64,000 nucleotides of DNA. Source: a virus. The notes beneath the pieces were generated by a model. It did no database searches, was not told the origin of the DNA, and worked only from the letters and a program-made list of their open reading frames with translations. This document shows positions 11,086 through 64,000 of the stretch, one piece after another. Made by a program: the position numbers and the translations under genes. The stretch lies in IMG/VR virus record IMGVR_UViG_3300029394_000152. One strand, 5' to 3'. Each line of letters starts with the position of its first letter. Within the stretch, counting starts at the first letter, position 1.

Positions 11086-11163
11086 CCGGGTGTAGCGCAG
11101 TTTTGGTAGCGCGCTTGAATGGGGTTCAAGAGGCCGTGAGTTCGATTCTCGCCACTCGGACCA
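11086..11163 (+). tRNA. tRNA-Pro (GGG)
   Basis: cloverleaf with 7-bp acceptor, C1:G72 and A73 typical of bacterial tRNA-Pro, anticodon loop AUGGGGU, T-loop TTCGATT, encoded CCA. Confidence 0.8.
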
Positions 11164-12670
11164 GACGCATCCCAGACGAACTTTCTTTTTGTAAGTTTGT
11201 CTGGGATGTTTTTTTGTTTTTGTTAACGGTTTCGTCCGAAACATTAAAATTGATAACCAGTTCACGGTCGCTAACTACCATACTTGTTACAAAAGTGTTA
11301 ACAAGACGGCGACCATACTCCGGTGTGCGCTCGGACGGCTCCACCAAGAACTGTTCCAGCAGGAAAAGGTACTGTTCTTTGGTGAATACAACCGGCTTCT
11401 CCTTTTCCAGAGCAGAGAGCTGGAAGTTCAGAGTGCGCTCCTGTTCGCTCAGATCGTCCAGACGGGCGCACAGCTGCGCATTGGCGGTGCCGTTTTCGAT
11501 GGCGTCCAGAATGTTCTTACTACGGCGGCGGACATCGGCAAGGCTCTGTTCGATGGCTACGCGCTCGGCGTTTGGTTTTTCCGCATCAGCCTTTTGCACC
11601 TCGACCATAGCTTCGGCCAGCGCTTCCATGGCTTCCGGCTGCAAGAGGTGATCCGAGATGGACTGCATGACCTTTCCTTCCAGATCGTCCTTCGGGATGT
11701 TCCGCAGGTGGCAGTTCTTGTTGGGACAGGTGTAGTAGCGGTAGACCTCGCCGGTGGCGCTGTGGCCGCTCATGCCGCGCATGAGGGAACCGCAGGAGCA
11801 GTAGAGCTTGCCGGACAGGATATAGTCCGCTTTCGGTTCATTCTTTGCCTTGAGCTGACGGTTCAGTTTCAACATGGTTTGTGCCCTCTCCCAAAGTTCG
11901 TCGTCGATAATGGCCGGAATGGCCCCTTCAATGCGCACATCATACGATTTGCTGACGTACACGCCGCGATAGGCTTCGTTCTGGATGATCCGGGGAATGC
12001 TGCTCTTGTTGAAGGGGTTGCCCTGACTGGTACGCAGACCTTTGGCGTTGAGCTTATCTACAATAGAGGTGGCGGATTCCCCGGCGGCGTAATGCTCAAA
12101 GATGAAGCGGACGGTGGGAGCGGTCTTTTCATCAATGACAAACCGTTTGTGTTCGTCCGTTTTCAGGCCAAGGGCACGGCATCGGCTGATGGCCTGCCCC
12201 TTGAGGGCACTTTCTCTCATGCCGCGGCGCATCTTCTCGGCCAGCTCGGCAGAGTAGTATTCGGCCAGCGCTTCCATCACGCCCTCAATGATGATACCTT
12301 CCGCACCGGCGATATTGGATTCTGCGGCATAAACGATCTCAACGCCGTTGTCACGCAGGCGTTTCTTGTACACGGCAGAATCATAGCGGTTCCGGGCGAA
12401 GCGGTCTGTTTTCCAGCAAATCACCATATCGAATGCGCCCTTGTCGCTGTCAGTAATCATTTGCTGGAACGCTGCACGATCATCGGTCTTGCCGCTGATG
12501 TGGCGATCCACATATTCTTTCTGAATGGTCATGTTGTGCAGGCGGGCGTAGGTCTCGCAGTCCCGGCGCTGGCCCTCAATGGACTGCTCGGTCTGCCCGC
12601 TGCCGCCGCTGTATCTGTAATAGGCGACCAGCCGCACTTCGCCGCCCTTGTTGAATTTTCTTTTTGCCAT
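11126..12670 (-). CDS. large serine recombinase (prophage integrase)
   Basis: N-terminal resolvase catalytic domain (YYRYSGGSGQ...) with a long zinc-ribbon/coiled-coil C-terminal recombinase domain; last 13 codons overlap the tRNA-Pro 3' end. Confidence 0.9.
   Translation of the reverse strand: MAKRKFNKGGEVRLVAYYRYSGGSGQTEQSIEGQRRDCETYARLHNMTIQKEYVDRHISGKTDDRAAFQQMITDSDKGAFDMVICWKTDRFARNRYDSAVYKKRLRDNGVEIVYAAESNIAGAEGIIIEGVMEALAEYYSAELAEKMRRGMRESALKGQAISRCRALGLKTDEHKRFVIDEKTAPTVRFIFEHYAAGESATSIVDKLNAKGLRTSQGNPFNKSSIPRIIQNEAYRGVYVSKSYDVRIEGAIPAIIDDELWERAQTMLKLNRQLKAKNEPKADYILSGKLYCSCGSLMRGMSGHSATGEVYRYYTCPNKNCHLRNIPKDDLEGKVMQSISDHLLQPEAMEALAEAMVEVQKADAEKPNAERVAIEQSLADVRRRSKNILDAIENGTANAQLCARLDDLSEQERTLNFQLSALEKEKPVVFTKEQYLFLLEQFLVEPSERTPEYGRRLVNTFVTSMVVSDRELVINFNVSDETVNKNKKTSQTNLQKESSSGMRLVRVARIELTAS
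11167..11218 (+). terminator. rho-independent terminator after the tRNA
   Basis: perfect 10-bp inverted repeat catcccagac/gtctgggatg followed by TTTTTTTGTTTTTG; lies inside the 3' coding end of the recombinase on the other strand. Confidence 0.6.
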
Positions 12671-13527: not shown

Positions 13528-13773
13528 ATGGTATATCCGCTGGCTGAAAAGTATCTGCGTATCAGTGGCAAAACGGTAGAAGAACTGGCGGAAGAAGTCG
13601 GGACTTCCCGCAGTACGATGTACTACAAACTGAATGGCGGCTCAGACATGAGCGTGGAAATGGCTATCAAGGTCAAGGCGGCTTTGGGTGCAGAGGAAAG
13701 CATTGAAAAGCTCTTTGCACGCAGCGACGAACCCGAAAAGCAGGAGGGCGAAGCGCATGACGCTGAAACCTGA
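13528..13773 (+). CDS. Cro-like HTH regulator
   Basis: HTH GKTVEELAEEVGTSRSTMYYKL; GGAGGA RBS. Confidence 0.6.
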   Translation: MVYPLAEKYLRISGKTVEELAEEVGTSRSTMYYKLNGGSDMSVEMAIKVKAALGAEESIEKLFARSDEPEKQEGEAHDAET

Positions 13774-14065
13774 ACACATTGTAGAAGCGCTGAACAAAAC
13801 GCCGGAGCTGAAACGTCGCCTGATCCTGCGGATCATGGAAGAACTGCTGGACAGCGAAGCCTTTATGGAAGCGTACCCGCGCTTGTATGACCCGGCAGCG
13901 GCAGAGGCTTCACCGGAGTATAGGGAAAAGGTACGCGAAGAACTGGCGCAGATCATCGTGCGGCTGTTCCACAAAAACAAAGTTCGCCCGGACGATGCCG
14001 AAGAAGCATTGAACCGGGCGAGAGGAACTTATTTGGAAATGTATGTCCACTCCGATAAATCGTGA
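13757..14065 (+). CDS. hypothetical protein (copy A of a duplicated unit)
   Basis: ATGA-coupled start; N-terminus MTLKPEHIVEALNK is shared with the 14320 gene. Confidence 0.5.
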   Translation: MTLKPEHIVEALNKTPELKRRLILRIMEELLDSEAFMEAYPRLYDPAAAEASPEYREKVREELAQIIVRLFHKNKVRPDDAEEALNRARGTYLEMYVHSDKS

Positions 14066-14244: not shown

Positions 14245-14319
14245 ATTTATAACGCCTCCTTTCCGACTGATTATAGCACGGCGGGGAGGGGAGAGACAAC
14301 AAGCAGGAGGGCGGAGCGC

Positions 14320-14604
14320 ATGACGCTGAGACCTGAACACATTGAAGAAGCGCTGAACAAAAAGACGTTTGATGAAATCGACCCGGACGAAGTTCTGAAA
14401 CATTACGGCTACAAGCCGGAAGAAGTTCATTGCAACGGCGTCGGGATCGGTGTATGGCGCAAGGAAGAAGCGTTTCAGAAGTTGGGGGACATCGGGGCAT
14501 TCATGAGGTTTGTTGACCATAAAGCAAAAGCCCGGATCGAGTTCAACTACGACCCGGACTTTCCGGCGGCGTTGCTTATTACACACGCCGCCACAAAGAC
14601 GTAA
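14320..14604 (+). CDS. hypothetical protein (copy B of the duplicated unit)
   Basis: N-terminus MTLRPEHIEEALNK; AGGAGGG RBS. Confidence 0.5.
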   Translation: MTLRPEHIEEALNKKTFDEIDPDEVLKHYGYKPEEVHCNGVGIGVWRKEEAFQKLGDIGAFMRFVDHKAKARIEFNYDPDFPAALLITHAATKT

Positions 14605-14606
14605 GA

Positions 14607-14816
14607 TCAGTTTCCCAGAAGCGTGCATTTGCATCCTTGAGGAAAACAAGGAGAAGATTCAAAGTCCGCTGGCGATGTCCAGCAAACCTCTGCGGATTCA
14701 AGGCCGGATGTTCCAACCTTTTCAAAGACTTCCCATGCGTACTGTTCCATTTTCTTACAAGCTGCTATACGTTCAGATATGGGTAGTGCGCGAAGATCGA
14801 CAAAGTAGTATTTCAT
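14607..14816 (-). CDS. hypothetical small protein
   Basis: 69 aa; GGGGAGGGGG RBS; second copy of the TTGTTG-N17-GTGCTATAAT promoter. Confidence 0.45.
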   Translation of the reverse strand: MKYYFVDLRALPISERIAACKKMEQYAWEVFEKVGTSGLESAEVCWTSPADFESSPCFPQGCKCTLLGN

Positions 14817-15253
14817 AAATTCACCCCCTCCCCATTTTATATGTTCAAATTATAGCACGGCGGGGAGTACAAGCACAACAAGGAGCACGAGGGTATGAGC
14901 AAATGGCCGAAAAGATGAAGCCGGACAAGCTGACGCTGGATGTCCGGCAGGCCGACGCCGCGGGGCTGTCCTACGGCAGGTGGAGATTTGAAGAAACCGC
15001 GCGCAAACGCAAGGAAAAAGAGATTATCCACCGCCAGTGCGAAGAACGGCGGCGTCGGCGAGATGAAGCATTATCTGGCAAGGGCTGAAAGAACACGCCA
15101 GAGCGGCCCGCATGGGCAGGCGGTATGTCTGACACCGCCTTTATATGGTGCGGCCAGTGCAGGCGGGGAGCGTCAAGCCCCGCCGCCCGGTGTCAACTCC
15201 GGGACACACCACCATATCCGAAAATTTACCTGCAAGCAGAAAGGACAAAGAGT

Positions 15254-15601
15254 ATGGCATACGCATTTATTCACGGAGAGGTCAAGGGCAGCGGCGCGTC
15301 GGTCGAGTTCAAGGGCGACGGGCTTGATCTGCTGGATTTGACGATCCAGATTGTGGGCAGCGTTGTAGCAGAAGTTCCCGAACCGCTTCGTCCGTACGTT
15401 ATCAAGAAGATTCAGGACAAAATTCCTGATGAAGTGCAGAACGATTTGGAAGCGCAGGGAAAGGCGGCTCCGGCAGAGAAGAAGGAAAAGCCTCCTGTTG
15501 GCGAGACGGTAGGGTTCCGCATGGCACGGCAGTTTGCAGAGACAGAGCCGGGCTTCAAGGACTTCATTATGGCGCTGGCCGACAAGTTGTCGAACGGCTG
15601 A
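15254..15601 (+). CDS. hypothetical protein
   Basis: 115-aa ORF with an AAGGA RBS. Confidence 0.4.
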   Translation: MAYAFIHGEVKGSGASVEFKGDGLDLLDLTIQIVGSVVAEVPEPLRPYVIKKIQDKIPDEVQNDLEAQGKAAPAEKKEKPPVGETVGFRMARQFAETEPGFKDFIMALADKLSNG

Positions 15602-15617
15602 GTTTGGAGGTCGGAAT

Positions 15618-15914
15618 ATGAACTGCAATGTAAAAATCACAGCCGAGGGAACGGCTGATGGTCTGGAAGTCAGCATTCACGGCGGTTCGGTTGGCATGAT
15701 GACGGCGGCAGAGCTTATTGTGGCCCGTGTCCTCATGGCGGTAGCCGATGACGAGGAAAATCTGGCAGGTCTGAAAGACAGTATGTTTGAGATCATCAAT
15801 GAAATGGTCAAGGACTGCTGGGCTGAAAAGACGGCCAAGACGGAAGCCGAAAAAGAAGCTGCAGTGAACCAGCTGAAAGCCTTTGTGGCAATGTTCTTTG
15901 AACCGGAGGACTGA
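15618..15914 (+). CDS. hypothetical protein
   Basis: 98-aa ORF; GGAGG RBS 7 nt upstream. Confidence 0.45.
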   Translation: MNCNVKITAEGTADGLEVSIHGGSVGMMTAAELIVARVLMAVADDEENLAGLKDSMFEIINEMVKDCWAEKTAKTEAEKEAAVNQLKAFVAMFFEPED

Positions 15915-16135
15915 CACAGGGCGGTTCCAATGGCGGGAGGAACGAAAACAAAACCCGCTGCCAGAAATACAGGCAGAAAGGCGGGGGAGTGTGAGCAGTG
16001 AATTTACGCCCTTTGTGGCGGCGTCCATGCGGGAAATGCTTTTGGATATGCTCGAAAAGCACCCGGAGATTTTCGACAGACCGACAAGATACCCGGAGGG
16101 CCGGGCAGAATTTTTGAAACAGAAGGAGCCGAACC

Positions 16136-16702
16136 ATGGATAACGAAAAACTGTATGAGGACATGAAGCCGAAAGAAAAGTTTGAGGTTCTCTGGGCGGA
16201 GAGCGGCCTTGCTGATCGTCCGGGAGCGGAAAACCTTTGGCAGCAGATGGTGGCTTTGGGGTTCTTTGAAAAGCCTGCAAGCATTAAGCACCATTCCAAC
16301 CATCCCGGCGGTCTGTGTGAGCACTCGGTTTGTGTGGCAGAGGCGGCAATGGAACTGTGCAGAACGAATCACGCTTTCAAGAAATGTCACCGGAATGAAG
16401 TTCTTGCGGCAGCGCTTCTGCACGACTATTGCAAGGTGGGCAAGTACCGCGATAAAGGCAAAGGTGAGTACGAATACTTTGACGCCGGTCTGGTGGGCCA
16501 TGGAGAAGGAAGCGTCATCATGGCACAGCAGTACATCAGGCTGACGGCGCGGGAGATCGTGGCGATTCGCTGGCACATGGGAGCATACAGCGGGTCGCAG
16601 GACTGGGATACGCTCAGTGCTGTTTATGACCGCTACCCGGAAGCCCTGTGTCTGCACTTCGCGGATATGATCGCTACACACTACGACGAAGTTCATTTCT
16701 GA
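16136..16702 (+). CDS. HD-domain phosphohydrolase
   Basis: H...HD motif (HHSNHPGG...LLHDYCK); GAAGGAG RBS. Confidence 0.7.
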   Translation: MDNEKLYEDMKPKEKFEVLWAESGLADRPGAENLWQQMVALGFFEKPASIKHHSNHPGGLCEHSVCVAEAAMELCRTNHAFKKCHRNEVLAAALLHDYCKVGKYRDKGKGEYEYFDAGLVGHGEGSVIMAQQYIRLTAREIVAIRWHMGAYSGSQDWDTLSAVYDRYPEALCLHFADMIATHYDEVHF

Positions 16703-16886
16703 GGATGTAAATGAAGGTACATAACAGAAGTCCCACCGAAAAAGCCCTGCACAAAAATGAACAGTGCAGGCATACGTTCGAGATCACCCACAAGCGGTGT
16801 GCGCCGTGCAGTGGCTATGATACGAACTGTGAACGTTACGAAAAAACCAAGGGTGCTGCTGATACAAAAACATCTAAGGTATGAAT

Positions 16887-16925
16887 GAGCCGCCACGCAC
16901 CGCGTCAGCGCGGCGGCTTTTATAT
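16887..16925 (+). terminator. rho-independent terminator
   Basis: gccgcc...ggcggc stem followed by TTTTAT. Confidence 0.5.
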
Positions 16926-16930
16926 GGCGC

Positions 16931-17355
16931 GGGGCTGAACCTTGAAACGACGCAGGGGGAAACCACCAGCGGGGCCACACCCCGTCCGCGCCGCTTTGCA
17001 GCAGGTATTCATGGAAGCCGGTGCGTTTGTCCATAATTTGACGCACCGACAGGGGCAGAGGGTGCCGTATGGCGGCGTTTCTCCCGTGTAAGCTGGTGCA
17101 AGACCACGCTGCCTTTCTGCCAAGCTACGCCCGCATGACGGTGCGGAAACCGATTTGGGCGTGCACGCCGCATGAGCGAAGAAATGCCTTGTCCGATCCA
17201 CCCAAGCCAAAGGTGGAAGGTCTGCTTGACCAAGACCGGCCCGCCGCGCTGCTCTCTTGCGCGGTGGGTTCTGATATGCGGGTGCAGCAAGGAAGTTGTC
17301 CGCCGTCCTGATCCCCCATCGGTAGGCAAGCCGGTTCGATTCCGGCCACCCGTGC
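16931..17355 (+). ncRNA. tmRNA (ssrA)-like RNA with an aberrant 3' end
   Basis: 5' GGGGCUGAACCUUGAAACGACGCAGGG resembles the tmRNA acceptor plus D-analog; GGGGGA/UCCCCC could form a P2-like helix; perfect T-arm GCCGG-UUCGAUU-CCGGC at the 3' side; the following CACCCGUGCAAG cannot pair with the 5' GGGGCUG and lacks CCA; no coding ORF. Confidence 0.35.
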
Positions 17356-17390
17356 AAGAACTATGAAAAAATCAATAGGAGGTAAAAAGA

Positions 17391-17591
17391 GTGCTTTACG
17401 TCGATGCAATAAGGATTTTGGAGAAAATTGCACAGGCGAGATTCCTTCACGCGACAATGCCGAAACAAGAAGAAATCGAAGAAGCGATTAAGGTTGTGGC
17501 AAGTCAGGTAACGGTTCAGGCTTGTCCGGGCTTCGCGCTTCATGCCGCACTGTGGTGGATGGCAATTAAATCTAAAGAGGCAGAAGAATGA
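17391..17591 (+). CDS. hypothetical protein
   Basis: GTG start with an AGGAGGT RBS; 66 aa. Confidence 0.35.
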   Translation: MLYVDAIRILEKIAQARFLHATMPKQEEIEEAIKVVASQVTVQACPGFALHAALWWMAIKSKEAEE

Positions 17592-18999
17592 TTCATTTGG
17601 GCGACATTACTAAAATCCATGGAGACCAGATTGAACCCGTGGACTGCATCACGTTTGGTTCGCCTTGTCAGGATTTGTCCATGGCAGGCTTGAGAGCTGG
17701 CCTTGAGGGGAAAAATTCCGGTCTGTTCACAGAAGCCATAAGAGTTATTGTAGAAATGAGGGTTGCCACAAATGGAATGTATCCAGCTTTCGCTATCTGG
17801 GAAAATGTTCCCGGAGCTTTCAGCTCAAACGGCGGAGAAGATTTCAGAACCGTGCTGGAAAAACTTGCCCACGCGGCACAACCAGACGTTTCAATTCCTC
17901 GACCTGCGGGGGGGGGCGATGGTGCAAGGCCGGAGCAATCATCGGAAACGGCTGGTCTCTGGCATGGCGGTTGCTCAACGCTGAACGTTGGGGAGTGCCC
18001 CAGCGTAGAAAGCGTATCGCAGTTGTCGCAGATTTTAGAGGTCAATGTGCCGCAGAGATACTTTTTGAGCGCACGGGCCTGTCAGGGAATCCTGACAAGA
18101 GCATCCCGACGTGGCAAAGCGTTACCGGATTTACTCAAAACTGCCCTGCTGGACATGATCGAGTGGTGGCAGGGGAGGCAGCCTACACCCTGAAAATCCG
18201 TTCGGGATGTGCAGGAGGCGGGAAAGGCGCACTGGTGCAGACAGAAAAGACGGGAACGCTCTCGACGCTTCAAGACCAGACCCTTTTCCAGCCAATCGTC
18301 TTTGACGCTCGTGGAAATGGCAACGGTAAGACAGTTCCGACCATTACCGGAGATCATGAGAGCCGCGTCACAGACTATACGGCTATTGCGGTCGATCTGT
18401 ACAACGGAGCTGTTACCGGAAGCAAGGCGGCAGCCTTGAGTTGCAAGAATACCGGGACGACAGCGGGGCCGCAGGTTGCTGAAAGAAAAACCTATAGCGA
18501 GCAGACTTTCTCTACATACAAAGAAAGCGACAGCAGTGCAACACTGAAAGCGAAAACGGGAAATATCGAAAACGGTGGGGAATGCCTTGTGGCGGAACGT
18601 GTCGTGCGCTGGATCGTCCGAAGATTGACCCCGACGGAATGTGAGCGCCTGCAGGGATACCCGGACGGATGGACAGACATCGGGGAATGGACGGACACCA
18701 AAGGGAAAAAGCATAAACCGGCAGATACGCCGCGCTATAAGGCACTGGGAAACAGCATTGCCCTTCCGCAGTGGTTCTGGATTGCCCAGAAGATGCGGCC
18801 ATACCTGAAAGATAAGCCAACACTGGGAAGCCTGTTTGATGGAATTGGCGGTTTCCCGCTTGTGTGGGAGACGGCATATGGAGCAGGTACAGCAGTGTGG
18901 GCGTCTGAAATTGAAGAATTTCCAATTGCAGTAACAAAAAGGTGGTTTGGAAATGACACGGAAAATGAAAGCAATTCTGGTGCTGTTCTTCGCGGCTGA
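17588..18999 (+). pseudogene. C5-cytosine DNA methyltransferase, frameshifted at a G9 tract and with permuted motif order
   Basis: frame A carries GDITKI, PCQ (motif IV) and ENVPG (motif VI) up to RPAGGG; frame B carries GRWCKAGAIIGNGWSLAWR, QRR (VIII), RLTPTECERLQGYPDGW (IX), GNSIALP (X), then motifs I-II (LFDGIGGF, ASEIEEF) at the C-terminus; ten G's would join the two frames. Confidence 0.7.
17908..17916. repeat. homopolymeric G9 tract inside the methyltransferase coding region
   Basis: cctgc-ggggggggg-cgatgg; the frame changes exactly here. Confidence 0.8.
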
Positions 19000-19483
19000 G
19001 ATCGTCAACAGCGCAAAGGTCGGCGTACTGAAAGGCCGTATTGCAGACCTTGAGACCCAGCGGGATATTTACGCAAGCCGTGCCCAGAACTGGCTTGACC
19101 GGGCTGTAGAGGACGAAGAAGTTATTGATTCTCTGCAAATTCGCCTTGATGAAACAGCGGACAGGAAAATCGAGCTGACAGAGGCAGGTACATTTTTCTG
19201 CACGGCATATTGCACAGAACAGTACGAACATATCTGCGGAGAAGGACACGGAATTACGGCCAGCGGCCAGCCTATACAGGCAGGCGTCACTGTGGCAGCG
19301 GACACGTCCATCTTTCCGTATGGAACGGTTCTGTACATTGAGGGCGTAGGAATCCGCATTGTGCAGGACAAAGGAGCCGCCATTCAGGGAAAACACCTTG
19401 ATGTAGCTGTGGACACTCACGAGAATGCCGAGAAGTGGAACGGCTGTGGAAATCATAGAGTATGGGTTTTGAAGGAGAAATAA
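18953..19483 (+). CDS. 3D-domain protein (MltA/YabE-like)
   Basis: N-terminal hydrophobic segment; C-terminal 3D motif IVQDKGAAIQGKHLDVAVDTHENAEKWNG. Confidence 0.6.
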   Translation: MTRKMKAILVLFFAAEIVNSAKVGVLKGRIADLETQRDIYASRAQNWLDRAVEDEEVIDSLQIRLDETADRKIELTEAGTFFCTAYCTEQYEHICGEGHGITASGQPIQAGVTVAADTSIFPYGTVLYIEGVGIRIVQDKGAAIQGKHLDVAVDTHENAEKWNGCGNHRVWVLKEK

Positions 19484-19486
19484 ACT

Positions 19487-19981
19487 ATGGCGAACTGGGT
19501 AAAAGGAAAACTTAAAATCCGCGGAAAGCCGGAAGATATTAAGCGGTGGGCGGAAGAATGCCTGCACTGCTACTTCACAAAGTGGTTTAGAGATGGCTCA
19601 TACAAAGATGAACTTGTAGATGACGCTGTCGTATTTGAACATGATCCGAAAGCCCGCGAGATGCGTTTGGATACGATCGAGGACGCTTATATCGAAGGAA
19701 CGAAAAGAAACTTTGTTGAAAAGGGGGTCTACGGGGATTCTTACAGAGAAGATGAAAAGCCGATCCTTGTTGTAAGCATGAAAGCAGCATGGAACGTTGA
19801 TGAAACGCCCTACATTGAAATGTCCAAAAAGTACAATGTGGATTTCCGCGTGTATGGATATGAAATGGGTTTGGAGTTCAACAGGGAAATTGAGATCGTG
19901 GAGGGCAGACTTGTCACGAACCGGAGAATCAAATTTAAGGACTACAAATGGGAATGCCCTGATCCGACGCTTGGAGGGTGA
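19487..19981 (+). CDS. hypothetical protein
   Basis: 164-aa ORF; GAAGGAGAAA RBS. Confidence 0.5.
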   Translation: MANWVKGKLKIRGKPEDIKRWAEECLHCYFTKWFRDGSYKDELVDDAVVFEHDPKAREMRLDTIEDAYIEGTKRNFVEKGVYGDSYREDEKPILVVSMKAAWNVDETPYIEMSKKYNVDFRVYGYEMGLEFNREIEIVEGRLVTNRRIKFKDYKWECPDPTLGG

Positions 19982-19984
19982 GCG

Positions 19985-20236
19985 GTGAAGATAAAAAGAG
20001 CGCTGGAAGAAGTTGCAGCAGAGGCCCAGAAGGATGGGTATGGGTTTGAATATATGCGAAACATCCGGGATGGATCGCTTGAAATGAGAATTTTCAAGGG
20101 ACGATTTGGCGAAAGGGTGACTTTACCCGTCAGGGAAGTGGTCGAGCATGAAACGTCCGGGACGGGGCACAAGCTCATTTTCGATACTTACTTTGCCCTG
20201 AAAGATCAATACGAGAGGGACGAAGTATGGATGTGA
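19985..20236 (+). CDS. hypothetical protein
   Basis: GTG start with a GGAGGG RBS. Confidence 0.4.
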   Translation: MKIKRALEEVAAEAQKDGYGFEYMRNIRDGSLEMRIFKGRFGERVTLPVREVVEHETSGTGHKLIFDTYFALKDQYERDEVWM

Positions 20237-20436
20237 AGCAGTCTCAAAAGGCAGGAAATAATGCAATTCAAATCCAGCAAACGGTTGTCGGAGACAATAA
20301 CTATGTTGTCGGAATTGAAATTGAGAACGACAGCCGCAAGCCGAACGACAACCAGCCCAAAAGGTCACTTCTGCGTAGGCTTGCTGCTTTTCTAAATGAT
20401 ATGGTAGCGGAGATTATCGACGCATTGGAGCTGTGA
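20227..20436 (+). CDS. hypothetical protein
   Basis: overlapping start; 69 aa. Confidence 0.35.
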   Translation: MDVKQSQKAGNNAIQIQQTVVGDNNYVVGIEIENDSRKPNDNQPKRSLLRRLAAFLNDMVAEIIDALEL

Positions 20437-20437
20437 A

Positions 20438-20659
20438 ATGACCCAGTATTGCAGATATTGTTCACTGGCGTCCCTGCAGGACGACGATCTAATTTACTGT
20501 GAAGCAAGAAAAGAAATCCGGGATAAAAAGAAAATTGTCAGCCCGAACCGCTGCAAGCAGTTTGAATTTAATCCGGTTGATGTCCTGAACGAAGAAAAGG
20601 ACTACAAGCCGCGCGAAACGAAAAATAAGAATCCAGAGGGGCAGGTGAGCTTCCTGTAA
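20438..20659 (+). CDS. hypothetical Cys-containing small protein
   Basis: CxxC...C...C pattern; 73 aa. Confidence 0.35.
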   Translation: MTQYCRYCSLASLQDDDLIYCEARKEIRDKKKIVSPNRCKQFEFNPVDVLNEEKDYKPRETKNKNPEGQVSFL

Positions 20660-20751
20660 TGGGATTATCTAAGTGGCGTCCCTATTTACCACGATCCGAT
20701 TTAATCCAGCTTTCGCCCGTACATAAACGCATGAGCGAAAGTTGAGGAAAC

Positions 20752-21663
20752 ATGATTCTTTTTATTATCGGCGCACTGTTTGTACTGATCGCGCTGGCTA
20801 TCCTGATTTTCTCGGATGATGCAAAAAGAACTGCAATCATCCCGGCGGTGGTGGCTGTCATTTTTATCGGCATTTCCTGTGTGTCCTATGTCCCTACCGG
20901 CTATACCGGCATCGTCACGACCTTTGGCAAAGTCGAGGATGGCACGAAGGACGCAGGTGTGGTGCTCAAGGCCCCGTGGCAGTCCATCGTGAAGATGGAT
21001 AACCGTGTTCAGGAAATGAGCATGGATTTGTCAGCGTTCAGTTCTGACATTCAGGAAGTCTCCACCAGTGTGGCGGTTGGCTACCGGATCAATCAGGCAA
21101 ATGCAATGACCATCTACAAAGAGGTCGGCAAAAAGTATGAGGACACCCTGATTACTCCCCGTGTCCTTGAAACGGTGAAAGCTGTAGTTGCCCACTACGA
21201 TGCAAGCAGCCTGATTTCTAACCGGGATGCAGTCGCTTCCCAGATGGACACGAAACTGCGGGAAGTGCTGGCACAGTACAACATCGACCTGCAGTATATC
21301 AGCGTAACCAATTTTGACTTCACTGATACCTTTACCGATGCGGTGGAAGCAAAGGTCAAGGCCCAGCAGGAAAAGGAAAAAGCCGAGACTGACGCCGACA
21401 AGCGCCGTGTCGAAGCACAGGCCACGGCGGACGCTGACCTGATCGCAGCCAATGCGGAAGCGGAAAAGTCTAAGGTTGCAGCGGACGCAGAGTTGTACGT
21501 TGCAGAGAAAAAGGCGGAAGCAAACCGCGCCCTGAATGACAGCCTGAACAGCAACCTGCTGGAATACTACAAGATCACCGATGTGGAATCCCGCTGGAAC
21601 GGTGAACTGCCTGCCTATGTTGGCGACGGTAACAGCATTCCCATTATCAACGGCATCAACTGA
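20752..21663 (+). CDS. SPFH/Band-7 (prohibitin/HflC-like) membrane protein
   Basis: N-terminal TM helix, SPFH core and coiled-coil A/E/K-rich C-terminus; GAGGA RBS. Confidence 0.75.
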   Translation: MILFIIGALFVLIALAILIFSDDAKRTAIIPAVVAVIFIGISCVSYVPTGYTGIVTTFGKVEDGTKDAGVVLKAPWQSIVKMDNRVQEMSMDLSAFSSDIQEVSTSVAVGYRINQANAMTIYKEVGKKYEDTLITPRVLETVKAVVAHYDASSLISNRDAVASQMDTKLREVLAQYNIDLQYISVTNFDFTDTFTDAVEAKVKAQQEKEKAETDADKRRVEAQATADADLIAANAEAEKSKVAADAELYVAEKKAEANRALNDSLNSNLLEYYKITDVESRWNGELPAYVGDGNSIPIINGIN

Positions 21664-21671
21664 CCTTTTGG

Positions 21672-21700
21672 AGCCGCCCGGTGCGGCGGCTCCTTTTTAT
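21672..21700 (+). terminator. rho-independent terminator
   Basis: ggagccgcc-cggtg-cggcggctcc followed by TTTTTAT. Confidence 0.55.
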
Positions 21701-21777
21701 GTGAGCATAGGGTATAGGCCCCGCCCGGTTCAAGCCCGGAAGTGCCCGCCGAAAAAATAAACAGAAGGGAGCAGACG

Positions 21778-21963
21778 ATGGCAAAGTTCAGCATCATGCT
21801 GTTCGGCTTTGACAGCTACACAAAAAGCAGGATGTGGCTGCCGTATAAGCTGGAAGCGGAAAAGGCCGATGCGGCAGTCCGCGAAGCGCGTGCGCGGGCA
21901 GGGAGAGCCTACCCGGAATTTGTAGAAGATGAAAGACCTGATGTGGAGGTGGTAAAAAGATGA
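21778..21963 (+). CDS. hypothetical protein
   Basis: AAGGGAG RBS; 61 aa. Confidence 0.4.
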   Translation: MAKFSIMLFGFDSYTKSRMWLPYKLEAEKADAAVREARARAGRAYPEFVEDERPDVEVVKR

Positions 21964-22610
21964 AACTTTCTGCACTGGCTGCCCAAATCAAAAGCTGCGG
22001 TCATTGTGAGGTAATCAACAACGGCGGAAGGATTTTTGTTGGCACGGGAAGTGCTTTCTACTGCATGGACGGCTACCCCAGAACGCAGGATGCGGGAGAA
22101 CTGGGCGCTATGCTGGGTATTCCGCAGAAGAAGATGAAAAACATCTTCTATCACGAGGAATGCACAATCGACGGGAAACTGTACGGCGTAAAGTGGGACG
22201 ACGAACCGGAACATGAAGGAAATACCTCTGAAATCAAAACTCGGATCGCGGTCAACGGAGAAGAACTTATCGCGTTGCGAAATCCTGATGGCAGTGTTGG
22301 TTTCACCCGGTCGGAGTTGCTGAAACCGGTGGAAGGTGAACTGAACAAGGAGTTTGCACAAATTTGTGTGCGTCCTGCCAATCAGGACTGCAGGTTCATC
22401 TATGCCATAAAAGACGGCATGATCCTTCGGGCGTTGATAGCGCCTATGAACATCAAGGACGATGTGGCGGATGATCTGGACGAGATCATCGCGGAACTGA
22501 TGTCCAGACGGCAGCAAAATATCGTCAAAAAAATGCACGACGATTTGCAGGACGTGATTGCACAGGAAACTGCAGAGAAAGCCGCGCAGGTTGAAAACGA
22601 ACAGGAATAA
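21960..22610 (+). CDS. hypothetical protein
   Basis: ATGA-coupled start; 216 aa. Confidence 0.5.
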   Translation: MKLSALAAQIKSCGHCEVINNGGRIFVGTGSAFYCMDGYPRTQDAGELGAMLGIPQKKMKNIFYHEECTIDGKLYGVKWDDEPEHEGNTSEIKTRIAVNGEELIALRNPDGSVGFTRSELLKPVEGELNKEFAQICVRPANQDCRFIYAIKDGMILRALIAPMNIKDDVADDLDEIIAELMSRRQQNIVKKMHDDLQDVIAQETAEKAAQVENEQE

Positions 22611-29964: not shown

Positions 29965-30070
29965 GGTTCATAGCTCCTTTTCGTTTTCGTGATGTTCCCG
30001 ACATTTATGCCGGGAAGATGGGGCGGGGCCGCTTTGAATCGGTGCGGCCCTGCTGGGGTGTCCGCTTTTA

Positions 30071-30991: not shown

Positions 30992-31083
30992 AATTCGTTT
31001 GCTCCTTTTCGCGTTTCGTGTTGTGCCTTTCGGCTGGGATCGGGTCGCTTTACGGTGCGGCCCGTCAAGGTATCCGGCGCGGA

Positions 31084-31569: not shown

Positions 31570-31689
31570 AAATTCAAGCCTCCTGTTTTCGTTTTTCGTG
31601 TTTCGTGACGATCCCCCGGCGGGGTGCCGGTGGGAAGTGGGGCGGGGCCGCTTTGAACGGTGCGGCCCTGCTGGGGTCTCCGTTTCGTG

Positions 31690-32631: not shown

Positions 32632-32735
32632 GGTAAATACTTCCTTTCAATTTTTGTTGTGGTTCTTCCCGGCGGGGCCGGGTGGATGGGATCGGGTCGC
32701 TTTTCGGTGCGGCCCGTCAAGGTATCCGGCGGGGA

Positions 32736-33308: not shown

Positions 33309-33426
33309 GGTTGTTTCTCCTTTTCGTTTCGTGGTGTGGCTTTTCGTGCTTTTCCCCGGCTATTGTCGGGGCGTGGGATCGGGTCGCTTTTCGTGGTGCG
33401 GCCCGTCAAGGTATCCGGGGCGGCGT

Positions 33427-33831: not shown

Positions 33832-34031
33832 GTTCTCGATCTCCTTTTGATTTTGGTTTTGACCCGGCGGAATGCCGGACCCCATGAGCGCCCGCCCCGT
33901 TTGGGGCGGCTGGACTTGCACCAGCGGCGGCGGATGCCGTCGGCCTTGCGGGGCGGGCTTGACTTCACTTCCTTTCGGTGGTAAAATCAGATTGCTTGAA
34001 AAAGTGCTTGTTCATGCGAACAAGTAGGCTG

Positions 34032-61543: not shown

Positions 61544-61585
61544 CAGGAAACTGTTTTGCAATAGGGGTACGGTTTATATTCTGAC

Positions 61586-61705
61586 GCTGCCATTTGGTGG
61601 CTGCGCTCTCCGAACACCAACAATAACAACAACGTCTGGAACGTCAACACCGATGGCTCCAACAACAACAACTGGTACAACAACTCCTATGGTGTTCGCC
61701 CCGCT
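61586..61705 (+). repeat. DGR template repeat (TR)
   Basis: non-coding 120 nt, AAC-rich, near-identical to VR1 and VR2 except at adenines; followed by a distinct 3' end (IMH*-like) ctgatggaacc. Confidence 0.8.
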
Positions 61706-61875
61706 CTGATGGAACCGTGTGACGAGTAGGCATAAGCTGAAAGCAGTGCGCCCATCAAAGGAAACCGCATCCTGTCGCTTGCCGATGCAGGCAAGTGATA
61801 AATACATCCCGCTGAGGTGGGCCATCCCTGCCGGATGCAGCCCACTACCGTAACGCGAACCAGCGGAGGGTCATT

Positions 61876-63105
61876 TTGACATACGAAGAACTGTGCAGCT
61901 TTGAGGTGCTTTACAAAGCCTACCTTGAAGCCCGGAAGGGAAAGCGCAGTAAAAGCAAAACAATCGAGTACGAGGCGCAGGCGCTGGCCTGCACGGAAAA
62001 GCTCTCCCGTAAGCTGGCTGTCTGCAATGTGCGGCAGCCAGACGGGAGCATTCGGCAGCAGATACGCTATGTGCCAAGTAAGTTTGAGGTCTTTGCCGTC
62101 TACGAGCCGAAGCGCCGCATGGTACACGCCCCCGCATTTGTGGACAAGGTGGTGCTGCACGCTCTGGTCGATAACATCCTGTATGATGCCCTGACAAAGA
62201 GCTTTATCCGGGACAGCCACGCCAGCCAGACCGGAAAAGGCACAGACGACGGCCTGATGCGCCTGAAAACCCACATGGTGGACTATTACCGCCGTGAGGG
62301 CCACGGCGCGGACGGCTGGGTGCTGAAAGGCGACGTGCGGCATTTCTTCGCCAGCATCGACCACCGGAAGCTAAAACGCAAGCTCAAAGCCGTGCTGGAC
62401 AAGCGCGGCGTTGACCCGCGTGTCTATGAGCTGCTTTGCATCTACATCGACGTGATGGAGGACGGCTTGCCGCTGGGCTACCAGACGAGCCAGCTTTTCG
62501 CCCTCATGTTTTTGGACGAGTTCGACCACATCATCAAAGAAAAGTACCGCATCAAATACTATGGCCGATACATGGATGATTTCTACATCATCTGTTCGGA
62601 CAAGCAGAAGTTGCAGTGCATCTTGAAGGATGTGCGGGCACTCATGGACGAGTACGGTTTGGAGCTGAACCAGAAAACGGCTATCTTCCCACTGAGGAAC
62701 GGCATTGATTTTCTGGGGTTCCATTCGTATCTGACTGAAACCGGCGCGGTCGTCCAAAAGCTGCGTCGGGACAGCGCCAAACGGATGAAAGCCAAAATCA
62801 GGCATTGGGAAAAGGCATACCCGGCGGGTGAGGTAACAAAGGAAGAAATCCTTTGTAGCTTCCTTGCATGGGATGCCCATGCTGCACACGGCGATACCTA
62901 CGCCCTGCGCCGCCAGTACGCCGACCGTCTGGGAAAATTGCTCAACTGCACAATTTCCATCCACCGAAAAATCAACTCGAATAAACTCGCACGAGACAGG
63001 CGACGCGCCCGGCAATGCCGCTGCATCTACAAGAAGCAGCACAAAGCCTTGACCGCCGCTGTCTCGCAGAACACAAGACCCATTGGCGTTTTGCCGTGGG
63101 CCTGA
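61876..63105 (+). CDS. DGR reverse transcriptase
   Basis: RT motifs including YMDDF and the DGR-specific LGYQTSQ (LGxxxSQ); no maturase or endonuclease domain; TTG start with a GGAGGG RBS; TR immediately upstream. Confidence 0.85.
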   Translation: MTYEELCSFEVLYKAYLEARKGKRSKSKTIEYEAQALACTEKLSRKLAVCNVRQPDGSIRQQIRYVPSKFEVFAVYEPKRRMVHAPAFVDKVVLHALVDNILYDALTKSFIRDSHASQTGKGTDDGLMRLKTHMVDYYRREGHGADGWVLKGDVRHFFASIDHRKLKRKLKAVLDKRGVDPRVYELLCIYIDVMEDGLPLGYQTSQLFALMFLDEFDHIIKEKYRIKYYGRYMDDFYIICSDKQKLQCILKDVRALMDEYGLELNQKTAIFPLRNGIDFLGFHSYLTETGAVVQKLRRDSAKRMKAKIRHWEKAYPAGEVTKEEILCSFLAWDAHAAHGDTYALRRQYADRLGKLLNCTISIHRKINSNKLARDRRRARQCRCIYKKQHKALTAAVSQNTRPIGVLPWA

Positions 63106-63121
63106 TTTTATAAGGAGGTAA

Positions 63122-64000
63122 CAATGGCAAACGTAAAACTGAGCACAAAGGCCGTTGGCAGCATCGTCAAGATCAAGGTCAACGGCGCGGCCAAAGATTT
63201 CATCATCGTGCATCAGGGCTTGCCCAGCAGCGCCTATGATGCAAGCTGCAACGGCGTCTGGGTTGTGATGAAGGACATCTACACCACGAGCACGTTCGGT
63301 AACAACAACTCTTACAAGGATTCCGGCATTCACACCTATCTGAACGGAACCTTCTACAACCTGATTGATTCTCAGATTCGAGCGGTTATCAAGCAGGTCA
63401 AGATTCCGTATACCAACAGCGGCGTTCAGAGCGGCGCAAACGGCCTTTCGACCAAGGTGTTCCTGCTGTCTGGCACGGAGGTCGGGTTCAGCGGCGTAAG
63501 CTACATGAACACCGAAGGTGCAAAGCTGTCCTATTTCGATAGCGCAAGCAAGCGTGTCGCATATAACGGCAGCAGCGCTGCCATTTGGTGGCTGCGCTCT
63601 CCGTACACCGACTATGTCAGCAGCGTCTGGTTCGTCTACACCGATGGCTCCCACGGCAACATCTGGTGCAACTACTCCTATGGTGTTCGCCCCGCTTTTG
63701 TACTTCCCTCTGAACTCGTGGTCTCTGACGACGGCACGGTCAGCACGAACACTGCACCGGCCATCAACACCAGCTCCACGAATCTGGGGGAGAAGAACGC
63801 GCCCTTCAACTTCGGATACACCGTTACCGATGCCGACGGCGATACTCTGACCGTCACCGAAAAGATGGACGGAAAGACCACCGCCACCCGCACAGGCGTT
63901 GCAAGCGGTACTGCACTGACCTTCAGGCAGGGCAGTACCGCCGACGGCTTCCGGCGCATCCTCAACGGCAGCCACACCATCCAGATCACGGCCAGCGACG
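63122..64000 (+). CDS. DGR target protein 2 (VR2-containing; continues past the window end with Ig-like repeats)
   Basis: VR2 encodes AAIWWLRSPYTDYVSSVWFVYTDGSHGNIWCNYSYGVRPA; partial at the window edge. Confidence 0.75.
63577..63696 (+). repeat. DGR variable repeat VR2
   Basis: 120 nt; all differences from the TR fall at TR adenines; shared 3' ctcctatggtgttcgccccgct, then an IMH-like tttgtacttccctctg also present after VR1. Confidence 0.8.

Follow-up and report, generated by a model that had tools for sequence, protein, structure and literature searches.

The methyltransferase gene

The stretch of DNA analysed here, referred to throughout as the window, comprises the 64,000 nt of IMG/VR virus record IMGVR_UViG_3300029394_000152. 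Translation of its plus strand shows a single C5-cytosine DNA methyltransferase gene at 17588-18999, in which the conserved motifs follow one another in the order III-IV-VI-VIII-target-recognition domain (TRD)-IX-X-I-II. The frame starting at ATG 17588 reads MIHLGDITKI (motif III) from its first codon, exactly as stated in the original prediction made from the letters of the window, and continues through FGSPCQDLS (motif IV) and ENVPG (motif VI) up to a run of nine G. Beyond the run the homologous reading shifts to the -1 frame, which carries QRRKR, a variable region of about 170 aa, RRLTPTECERLQGYPDGW and YKALGNSIALP. Past motif X this same frame runs unbroken into KDKPT-LGSLFDGIGGFP (motif I), VWASEIEEF (motif II) and AVTKRWFGN, ending with the stop at 18997-18999. 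The predicted in-frame passage from motif X through motifs I and II to the stop therefore holds, but the continuous open reading frame (ORF) that was also predicted does not exist in the window and requires 7, 10 or 13 G in the run.

The G run is the only lesion in the window copy. With nine bases in the run, translation from the ATG stops at 18193, past motif VI, so the gene is in the OFF state in the window. With one G added to the run, the product is 470 aa long and has four residue differences from database protein P0001, which is intact at 470 aa and 99% identical. The catalytic motifs are all present (SPCQ at aa 25-28, ENV at 72-74, QRRKR at 139-143), as are those for binding S-adenosylmethionine (AdoMet), namely FDGIGGF at 417-423 (I), E441 (II), GD at 5-6 (III) and GNS at 388-390 (X). 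The protein scores 121.3 bits against Pfam PF00145 (cut-off 22) and 111.3 bits against TIGR00675 (dcm; cut-off 100.65). No second copy or remnant of motifs I-II occurs elsewhere in the 64-kb window. The ATG overlaps the stop of an upstream 66-aa ORF (ATGA). Coordinates of the gene, its motifs and the adjacent signals are collected in Table 1.

Table 1. Features of the permuted methyltransferase gene and of the left prophage end, in window coordinates
Feature	Position	Strand	Remarks
tRNA-Pro(GGG)	11086-11163		abuts integrase gene; left prophage end (11086-12670)
Shine-Dalgarno-like AAAGAGG	17573..17579	+	8 nt upstream of ATG; read from sequence
Circularly permuted C5-cytosine DNA methyltransferase gene	17588..18999	+	470 aa if the run is G10; in the window, two frames meeting at the G run
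Motif III LGDITKI, new N-terminus of permuted enzyme	17597..17617	+	aligns to M.HhaI GDITQV, residues 59-64
Motif IV FGSPCQDLS, catalytic Cys27	17654..17680	+	P26, C27 and Q28 invariant in 114 members
Motif VI ENVPG	17801..17815	+	E72 invariant in 114 members
Poly-G run, 9 bases, breaks frame	17908..17916	+	encodes Gly loop PAGGGRW between VI and VIII
Motif VIII QRRKR	18001..18015	+	M.HhaI alignment
Variable region with TRD, about aa 166-337	18082..18597 (boundaries approximate)	+	mean pairwise identity 0.29
Motif IX RRLTPTECERLQGYPDGW	18619..18672	+	M.HhaI alignment
Motif X YKALGNSIALP, then helix (residues 393-406)	18736..18768	+	M.HhaI alignment, AlphaFold
Linker KDKPT, ancestral C-terminus (after X) to ancestral N-terminus (before I)	18808..18822	+	mean pairwise identity 0.21
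Motif I LGSLFDGIGGFP, AdoMet-binding glycine loop near C-terminus	18823..18858	+	L416, F417, G419, G421 and F423 invariant
Motif II VWASEIEEF, conserved acidic E441	18895..18921	+	E441 invariant; protein ends 25 residues on

Rotation of the motifs and predicted structure

The colinear I-to-X motif order of C5-cytosine methyltransferases is absent from this protein, where motifs III to X precede I and II. Comparison with M.HhaI by phmmer gives four rotated pieces: query residues 415-457 match HhaI 16-56, 5-87 match 59-134, 124-151 match 146-172, and 338-407 match 265-322. Taken together the pieces are an exact circular permutation, and the cut lies between HhaI residues 56 and 59, i.e. between motifs II and III. 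Translation, profile scores and this rotation agree in bearing out the permuted motif order first noticed in the sequence.

Permuted C5-cytosine methyltransferases have been classified by the position of the cut. Type B, defined on the engineered proteins cp62M.MpeI and cp58M.SssI, has its new termini between motifs II and III and its native ends joined directly (PMC5944983). The window enzyme likewise has its termini between II and III, and about six residues join the helix of motif X to the strand of motif I. It is not of Type H (M.BssHII-type), as its N-terminus lies at motif III and motifs IX-X come after VIII and the TRD. In terms of descent, the ancestral C-terminus, i.e. the helix of motif X, would have been fused through these residues to the ancestral N-terminus bearing motifs I-II, with the new ends placed in the II-III loop.

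Structure prediction with AlphaFold2 gave a mean predicted local distance difference test score (pLDDT) of 35 when 47 close homologues served as input; 114 diverse members of the family were used instead, with a predicted template modelling score (pTM) of 0.70. In that model the block-mean pLDDT exceeds 90 for most of residues 1-160 (five 10-residue blocks are at 71-89) and is 93-97 over residues 351-450. For the C-terminal block the prediction is of two strand-helix pairs (strand 413-416 with helix 422-431, then strand 436-440 with helix 444-454) at pLDDT 96-97, which in the model form the beta1-alphaA-beta2 unit expected for motifs I-II. The original prediction had raised a structural model as a means of asking if a C-terminal I-II segment can complete the AdoMet pocket. 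The segment itself is predicted with high confidence; the C-terminal X-I-II module and the N-terminal motif III would together form the pocket. The protein would have an ordinary class-I methyltransferase fold, with catalysis presumably carried out through Cys27 (PCQ), Glu72 (ENV) and the arginines of QRRKR, and with target recognition mid-chain.

Conservation of the permuted layout

The closest relatives were taken as the best 120 matches in a collection of 5.8 billion proteins, 113 of them full-length. All 113 begin with M-[IK]-H-LGDITKI and end with ...AVTKxRFxx. Their lengths are 425-579 aa, the differences being confined to the variable region; the length of that region varies widely in the family, where proteins of 425-1201 aa occur. 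When 1.84 billion cluster representatives were searched exhaustively with HMMER, 29,435 matched, 3,266 of them below 1e-30. The permuted layout is present in at least 105 of the best 150 among these 29,435 representatives, each standing for a separate 50%-identity cluster, and the canonical order in 13-16. In a scan that covered each bacterial species with one genome, 42 bacterial genome loci were colinear over residues 1-454, most of them in Oscillospiraceae, Ruminococcaceae, Christensenella, Gemmiger, Lachnospiraceae and Faecalibacterium. Homologues sharing the whole permuted architecture, the check proposed at the outset, are therefore found with the same start and the same end, and with the layout shared by these relatives, cluster representatives and many Clostridia genomes the view of a naturally permuted enzyme is strongly supported.

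In the alignment of the 114 members, mean pairwise identity is 0.68 for the I-II block, 0.68 for the III-VI core and 0.62 for motifs IX-X, falling to 0.21 for the linker between X and I and 0.13 for the tail after motif II.

A different account would have a recent tandem duplication, followed by deletions, leave a scrambled and non-functional gene in this prophage only. The motif order is that produced by truncating a tandem pair at both ends, and the gene is frameshifted in the window. However, the same layout with identical ends recurs in many bacterial families and in over 100 clusters defined at 50% identity, constraint on the C-terminal I-II block equals that on the catalytic core, and the window holds no further I-II segment. 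The temperate phages Toutatis and Lelie and the metagenomic copies carry the same single gene between the same neighbours (the 66-aa ORF and a 3D-domain protein), rather than the two tandem methyltransferase genes that a local deletion would predict. Conservation across the family refutes a local event, and this account is scarcely credible. A genuine, naturally permuted enzyme is preferred.

Origin of the permutation and other topologies

Canonical relatives, 45-60% identical, carry the junction ...KRFP-x-M-x-H-LGDITK at the point corresponding to the new N-terminus. RFPxMxHLGD is present in 14 of 15 canonical relatives, and its Met coincides precisely with the initiator of the permuted protein, so that the break at a conserved internal Met was correctly placed by the original prediction. 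Rotated, concatenated cores (103 sequences, 276 columns) were used for a rough neighbour-joining tree, where one clade contains 12 of the 13 canonical sequences and its sister clade nearly all permuted sequences. This pattern fits a single early permutation followed by radiation, and the permuted architecture probably had one early origin within a large methyltransferase family carried by phages of gut Clostridia. An ancient tandem duplication is the likely origin of the whole permuted family. The likely route would be an in-frame duplication trimmed at both ends, in which the conserved internal Met became the start codon. Duplication intermediates with I-II at both ends are absent from the 150 best representatives.

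A third topology, Type H-like, is seen in P0191 and about 25 relatives (including P0271-P0291), where one ORF has the order TRD-IX-X-I-II-III...VIII-TRD. Members of this subfamily are 458-584 aa long and lie on contigs of up to 72 kb, one protein being found on 32 contigs. Three Type H-like sequences were included in the tree, and two of them branch within the Type B clade. The window gene itself is not Type H-like.

Some further observations concern individual sequences. Two other phages, Enterobacter phage CobraSix and Vibrio phage 367.14, gave tblastn matches apparently reaching motif I; both proteins are canonical C5-cytosine methyltransferases and not permuted, and that of CobraSix is fused to an N6-adenine methyltransferase domain. 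P0248 contains an apparent intein, inserted within motif VI (ENV | C...HN | CGAFSS). P0272, P0282, P0342 and P0386, which likewise seem to have an intein, carry Pfam PF14890, and P0342 and P0386 also carry PF14528 and PF13403.

Relation to known methyltransferases

The closest counterparts in topology are laboratory constructs. Engineered Type/Class B permutants (cp62M.MpeI, cp58M.SssI, and M.HaeIII permutants from directed evolution; PMC5944983) share the arrangement of the window enzyme, which differs from them in being natural and a member of a large phage family. The activity of the engineered Type B constructs shows that catalysis is possible with this topology. In a 2018 study every permutation type was constructed, and those cut between II and III were the most active permutants; the study's survey of REBASE contained no natural Type B example, and its authors asked why nature avoids the II/III cut, proposing a handicap in AdoMet binding (PMC5944983). 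In the literature consulted, coverage of which is incomplete and does not include REBASE, no natural C5-cytosine methyltransferase cut between II and III was found.

M.BssHII, M.Alw26I, M2.Eco31I, M.Esp3I and M2.BsaI are likewise natural permuted C5-cytosine methyltransferases with motif I directly after motif X. The M.BssHII group is of Type H, with its N-terminus in the variable region and IX-X before I-VIII (PMC5944983), whereas the window enzyme is cut between II and III. Canonical phage enzymes of the same family (P0181, P0218 and P0227) resemble it at 45-60% identity in all motifs, in the same kind of variable TRD array and in possessing RFPxMxHLGD; unlike it, they have I-II at the N-terminus and end after the motif X helix. 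The catalytic domain of plant DRM2 and tobacco DRM has the order VI-X then I-V. The DRM enzymes are eukaryotic and act as a dimer in RNA-directed DNA methylation, unlike the enzyme described here. Methyltransferases of the beta class that modify N6-adenine or N4-cytosine (M.PvuII, M.MboIIA, CcrM, M.RsrI and M.BceJIV) have a different chemistry and only 8-9% identity, with a DPPY-type catalytic motif in place of PCQ with ENV.

Variation of the poly-G run

The run was compared in 51 copies from the two cultured phages, IMG/VR and metagenomes, which are mostly 99.4-99.8% identical. Run lengths were 6 (1 copy), 7 (4), 8 (10), 9 (11), 10 (10), 11 (9), 12 (5) and 14 (1), and 14 of the 51 copies are in frame. 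Changes of length that keep the frame give one glycine more or fewer in the loop PAGG(G)(G)RW. With the run taken as G10, no other stop or frameshift is present in 28 of the 38 full-length copies, that of the window included; these lesion-free copies show just 3-7 nt of difference, apart from one with 23 nt. Of the remaining 10, several are low-coverage assemblies with scattered indels, and the others are divergent alleles or have one extra indel. The 64-kb window has no other G or C run of more than 6 bases; shuffles of the same composition lead one to expect about 12 runs of 7 or more.

Runs of this kind are also found in more distant genomic loci. A homologous G7-G11 run is present in 14 of 34, and in 8 of those 14 it shifts the frame there. 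Nine of the ten loci whose frame shifts in the variable region carry G runs of 7 or more in that region, as opposed to none of the 12 in-frame loci. As a separate observation, several of the loci from other Clostridia (L062-L092) have multiple G7-G9 runs in the variable region, and those copies are frameshifted. One of them (L085) has four G8 runs and another (L092) has G9, C9 and G9, while run-free copies are intact.

As in phase-variable genes, a repeat within the ORF sets the frame and its length differs among near-identical copies. The variation suggests phase variation as its most likely cause, i.e. an on/off switch driven by slippage. Methyltransferases of phasevarions in host-adapted bacteria similarly contain a homopolymer within the coding sequence that sets the frame and varies in length between near-identical strains. 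Most phase-variable methyltransferases known are encoded on bacterial chromosomes by Type III mod or Type I hsd genes. The window enzyme differs from phasevarion genes as an orphan C5-cytosine methyltransferase on a temperate phage, with switching proposed from comparison of its copies.

Two other readings of the run were considered. Homopolymer error in sequencing or assembly could disguise a true run of G10 in every copy. G homopolymers are error-prone, and several contigs with coverage below 2 also have scattered indels elsewhere in the gene. Yet the lengths range over 6-14 and not merely by one base to either side, contigs with coverage of 8-24 give 7, 11 and 12, and the two cultured phages, sequenced independently, have 9 and 14. 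Gene callers over thousands of samples also find proteins of 277, 408 and 470 aa, as would be expected for the three phases. An artefact throughout is accordingly quite improbable. Programmed recoding is less probable still, and very unlikely: here G9 would be the functional allele, and a -1 ribosomal frameshift or transcriptional slippage would yield the full-length enzyme. A -1 slip on G9, worked out from the sequence, gives exactly PAGGGRW, the protein of the G10 allele. However, the length of the run is not fixed, and the three phases are similarly frequent, which no single programmed shift explains. A stimulatory structure is not known at the run, although no search aimed at one was made.

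Interpretation of the gene

From its sequence and the structural model, the gene probably encodes a genuine and natural orphan enzyme of a temperate Faecalibacterium phage, a C5-cytosine DNA methyltransferase whose chain is circularly permuted, with the G run most likely serving as a switch. Several points weigh against this interpretation. Enzyme activity is argued from conservation, the model and engineered analogues. The contacts that would build the AdoMet pocket are presumed, and the target-recognition region is poorly modelled, with low AlphaFold confidence; because of the poor TRD a search for similar folds in BFVD gave only low TM-scores (template modelling scores). Both cultured phages are out of frame at the run, Toutatis with G9 and Lelie with G14. 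About 27% of copies are in frame, the value expected without selection on the frame and one that a dispensable gene, or a gene in decay in this lineage, could also show. Some differences in run length come from low-coverage assemblies with scattered indels elsewhere.

Part of this could be explained by a pseudogene: the family would be real, the gene dead in Toutatis/Lelie-like phages, and the run lengths the outcome of neutral slippage. The 37 of 51 copies out of frame, near the two-thirds expected without selection, and the state of both cultured phages are in its favour, as is Lelie, which is still an active phage with G14 (PMC11792537). Against a dead gene stand the lack of lesions outside the run in 28 of the 38 full-length copies and the many intact members of 469-471 aa in a cluster of 3282 members. 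Moreover, lineages that share only 40-75% identity keep unbroken G runs at identical codons, though synonymous GGN codons could interrupt them. Decay in this lineage is unlikely on balance, and the preferred interpretation is still that of a functional permuted enzyme, probably under the control of the run.

The enzyme is a natural Type B variant of a very well-known kind of enzyme, abundant in gut phages and poorly or fragmentarily annotated. GenBank has two "DNA methyltransferase" coding sequences in Toutatis and a "hypothetical protein" in Lelie, PHROGs phrog_16427 is built from a C-terminal fragment of the permuted methyltransferase, and the papers on Toutatis and Lelie do not mention the methyltransferase. 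C5-cytosine methyltransferases are the textbook case of a rigid motif order, and the family suggests that nature uses the II/III cut widely, in phages of dominant human gut bacteria. It offers natural sequences for testing the AdoMet-affinity idea, as well as a natural series (canonical, Type B and Type H-like) for studying the evolution of new protein topologies. Should the poly-G run prove to be a true switch, the gene would exemplify phase-variable epigenetic marking carried by a temperate phage of the gut.

A broader picture may be put forward tentatively, in which one gut-phage family has three topologies (canonical, Type B and Type H-like) and many of its members, the window enzyme among them, retain hypermutable poly-G runs. 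A temperate phage would then possess a phase-variable methyltransferase that splits its progeny into methylated and unmethylated. If true, the three topologies side by side would preserve, in living form, a record of how duplication gives rise to permutation. The split among progeny, if true, would be a bet-hedge between hosts with restriction enzymes blocked by methylation and hosts with restriction enzymes dependent on it.

Prophage setting

Sequence matches identify the window as a lysogen whose prophage is Toutatis/Lelie-like, from a temperate Faecalibacterium phage of Toutatisvirus. The methyltransferase region is 99.6% identical to phage Lelie, and window 14300-22097 is colinear with the Lelie and Toutatis genomes. 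Position 1 of the Toutatis record, at the integrase gene (gp01, minus strand), corresponds to window 11126, with 99.9% identity over 3.3 kb. As the integrase gene adjoins the tRNA-Pro gene, the host chromosome occupies window 1 to about 11100, and the prophage continues past 64000. The methyltransferase gene lies about 6.4 kb inside the prophage, in its early region.

The immediate neighbours of the gene are the 66-aa ORF, which has no family match, and the 3D-domain protein. With no cognate endonuclease gene adjacent, the enzyme is taken to be an orphan phage methyltransferase and not part of a restriction-modification system. Its probable role would be to methylate phage DNA, and perhaps that of the lysogen, against host restriction.

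The original prediction had also placed the gene about 240 bp from a junction resembling transfer-messenger RNA (tmRNA). Phage DNA lies on both sides of this point and is colinear with Lelie and Toutatis, so it is not a prophage boundary; that boundary is at the tRNA-Pro gene, and the proposed proximity to a junction is unsupported. What lies there, at about 16927-17355 on the plus strand, is a GC-rich non-coding stretch with tRNA-like ends. Its 5' part, GGGGCUGAACCUUGAAACGACG, resembles tmRNA 5' ends, a T-arm GCCGG-UUCGAUU-CCGGC is present at 17330-17346, and a 7-bp acceptor pairing is possible between GCGCGGG (about 16927) and CCCGUGC (17347-17353), with G-U at the third pair. A tmRNA at 16927-17355 was not called by ARAGORN down to thresholds of 70%, and Rfam matched only a 17-nt T-loop (E = 0.18). 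No obvious tag reading frame is present in 16927-17355, and folding gave a z-score of only -1.39. The stretch may encode a divergent tmRNA-like or tRNA-like RNA of the phage.

Other elements of the prophage

Several additional elements were noted within the prophage. A direct repeat of about 62 nt, with copies about 95-97% identical, occurs in the early region at 13738-13799 and 14301-14362 and is also found in Toutatis and Lelie. On the minus strand, hits above the Rfam gathering score include a twister-sister ribozyme at 33875-33956 (77 bits) and five RAGATH-5 RNAs, at 30012-30065, 31028-31077, 31631-31683, 32680-32729 and 33367-33418. The diversity-generating retroelement region of these phages, which corresponds to window positions of about 61585-63981, has been described previously (PMC11792537, PMC5883640). 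There the window is only 79-88% identical to the reverse-transcriptase and Hoc-like decoration genes of Toutatis.

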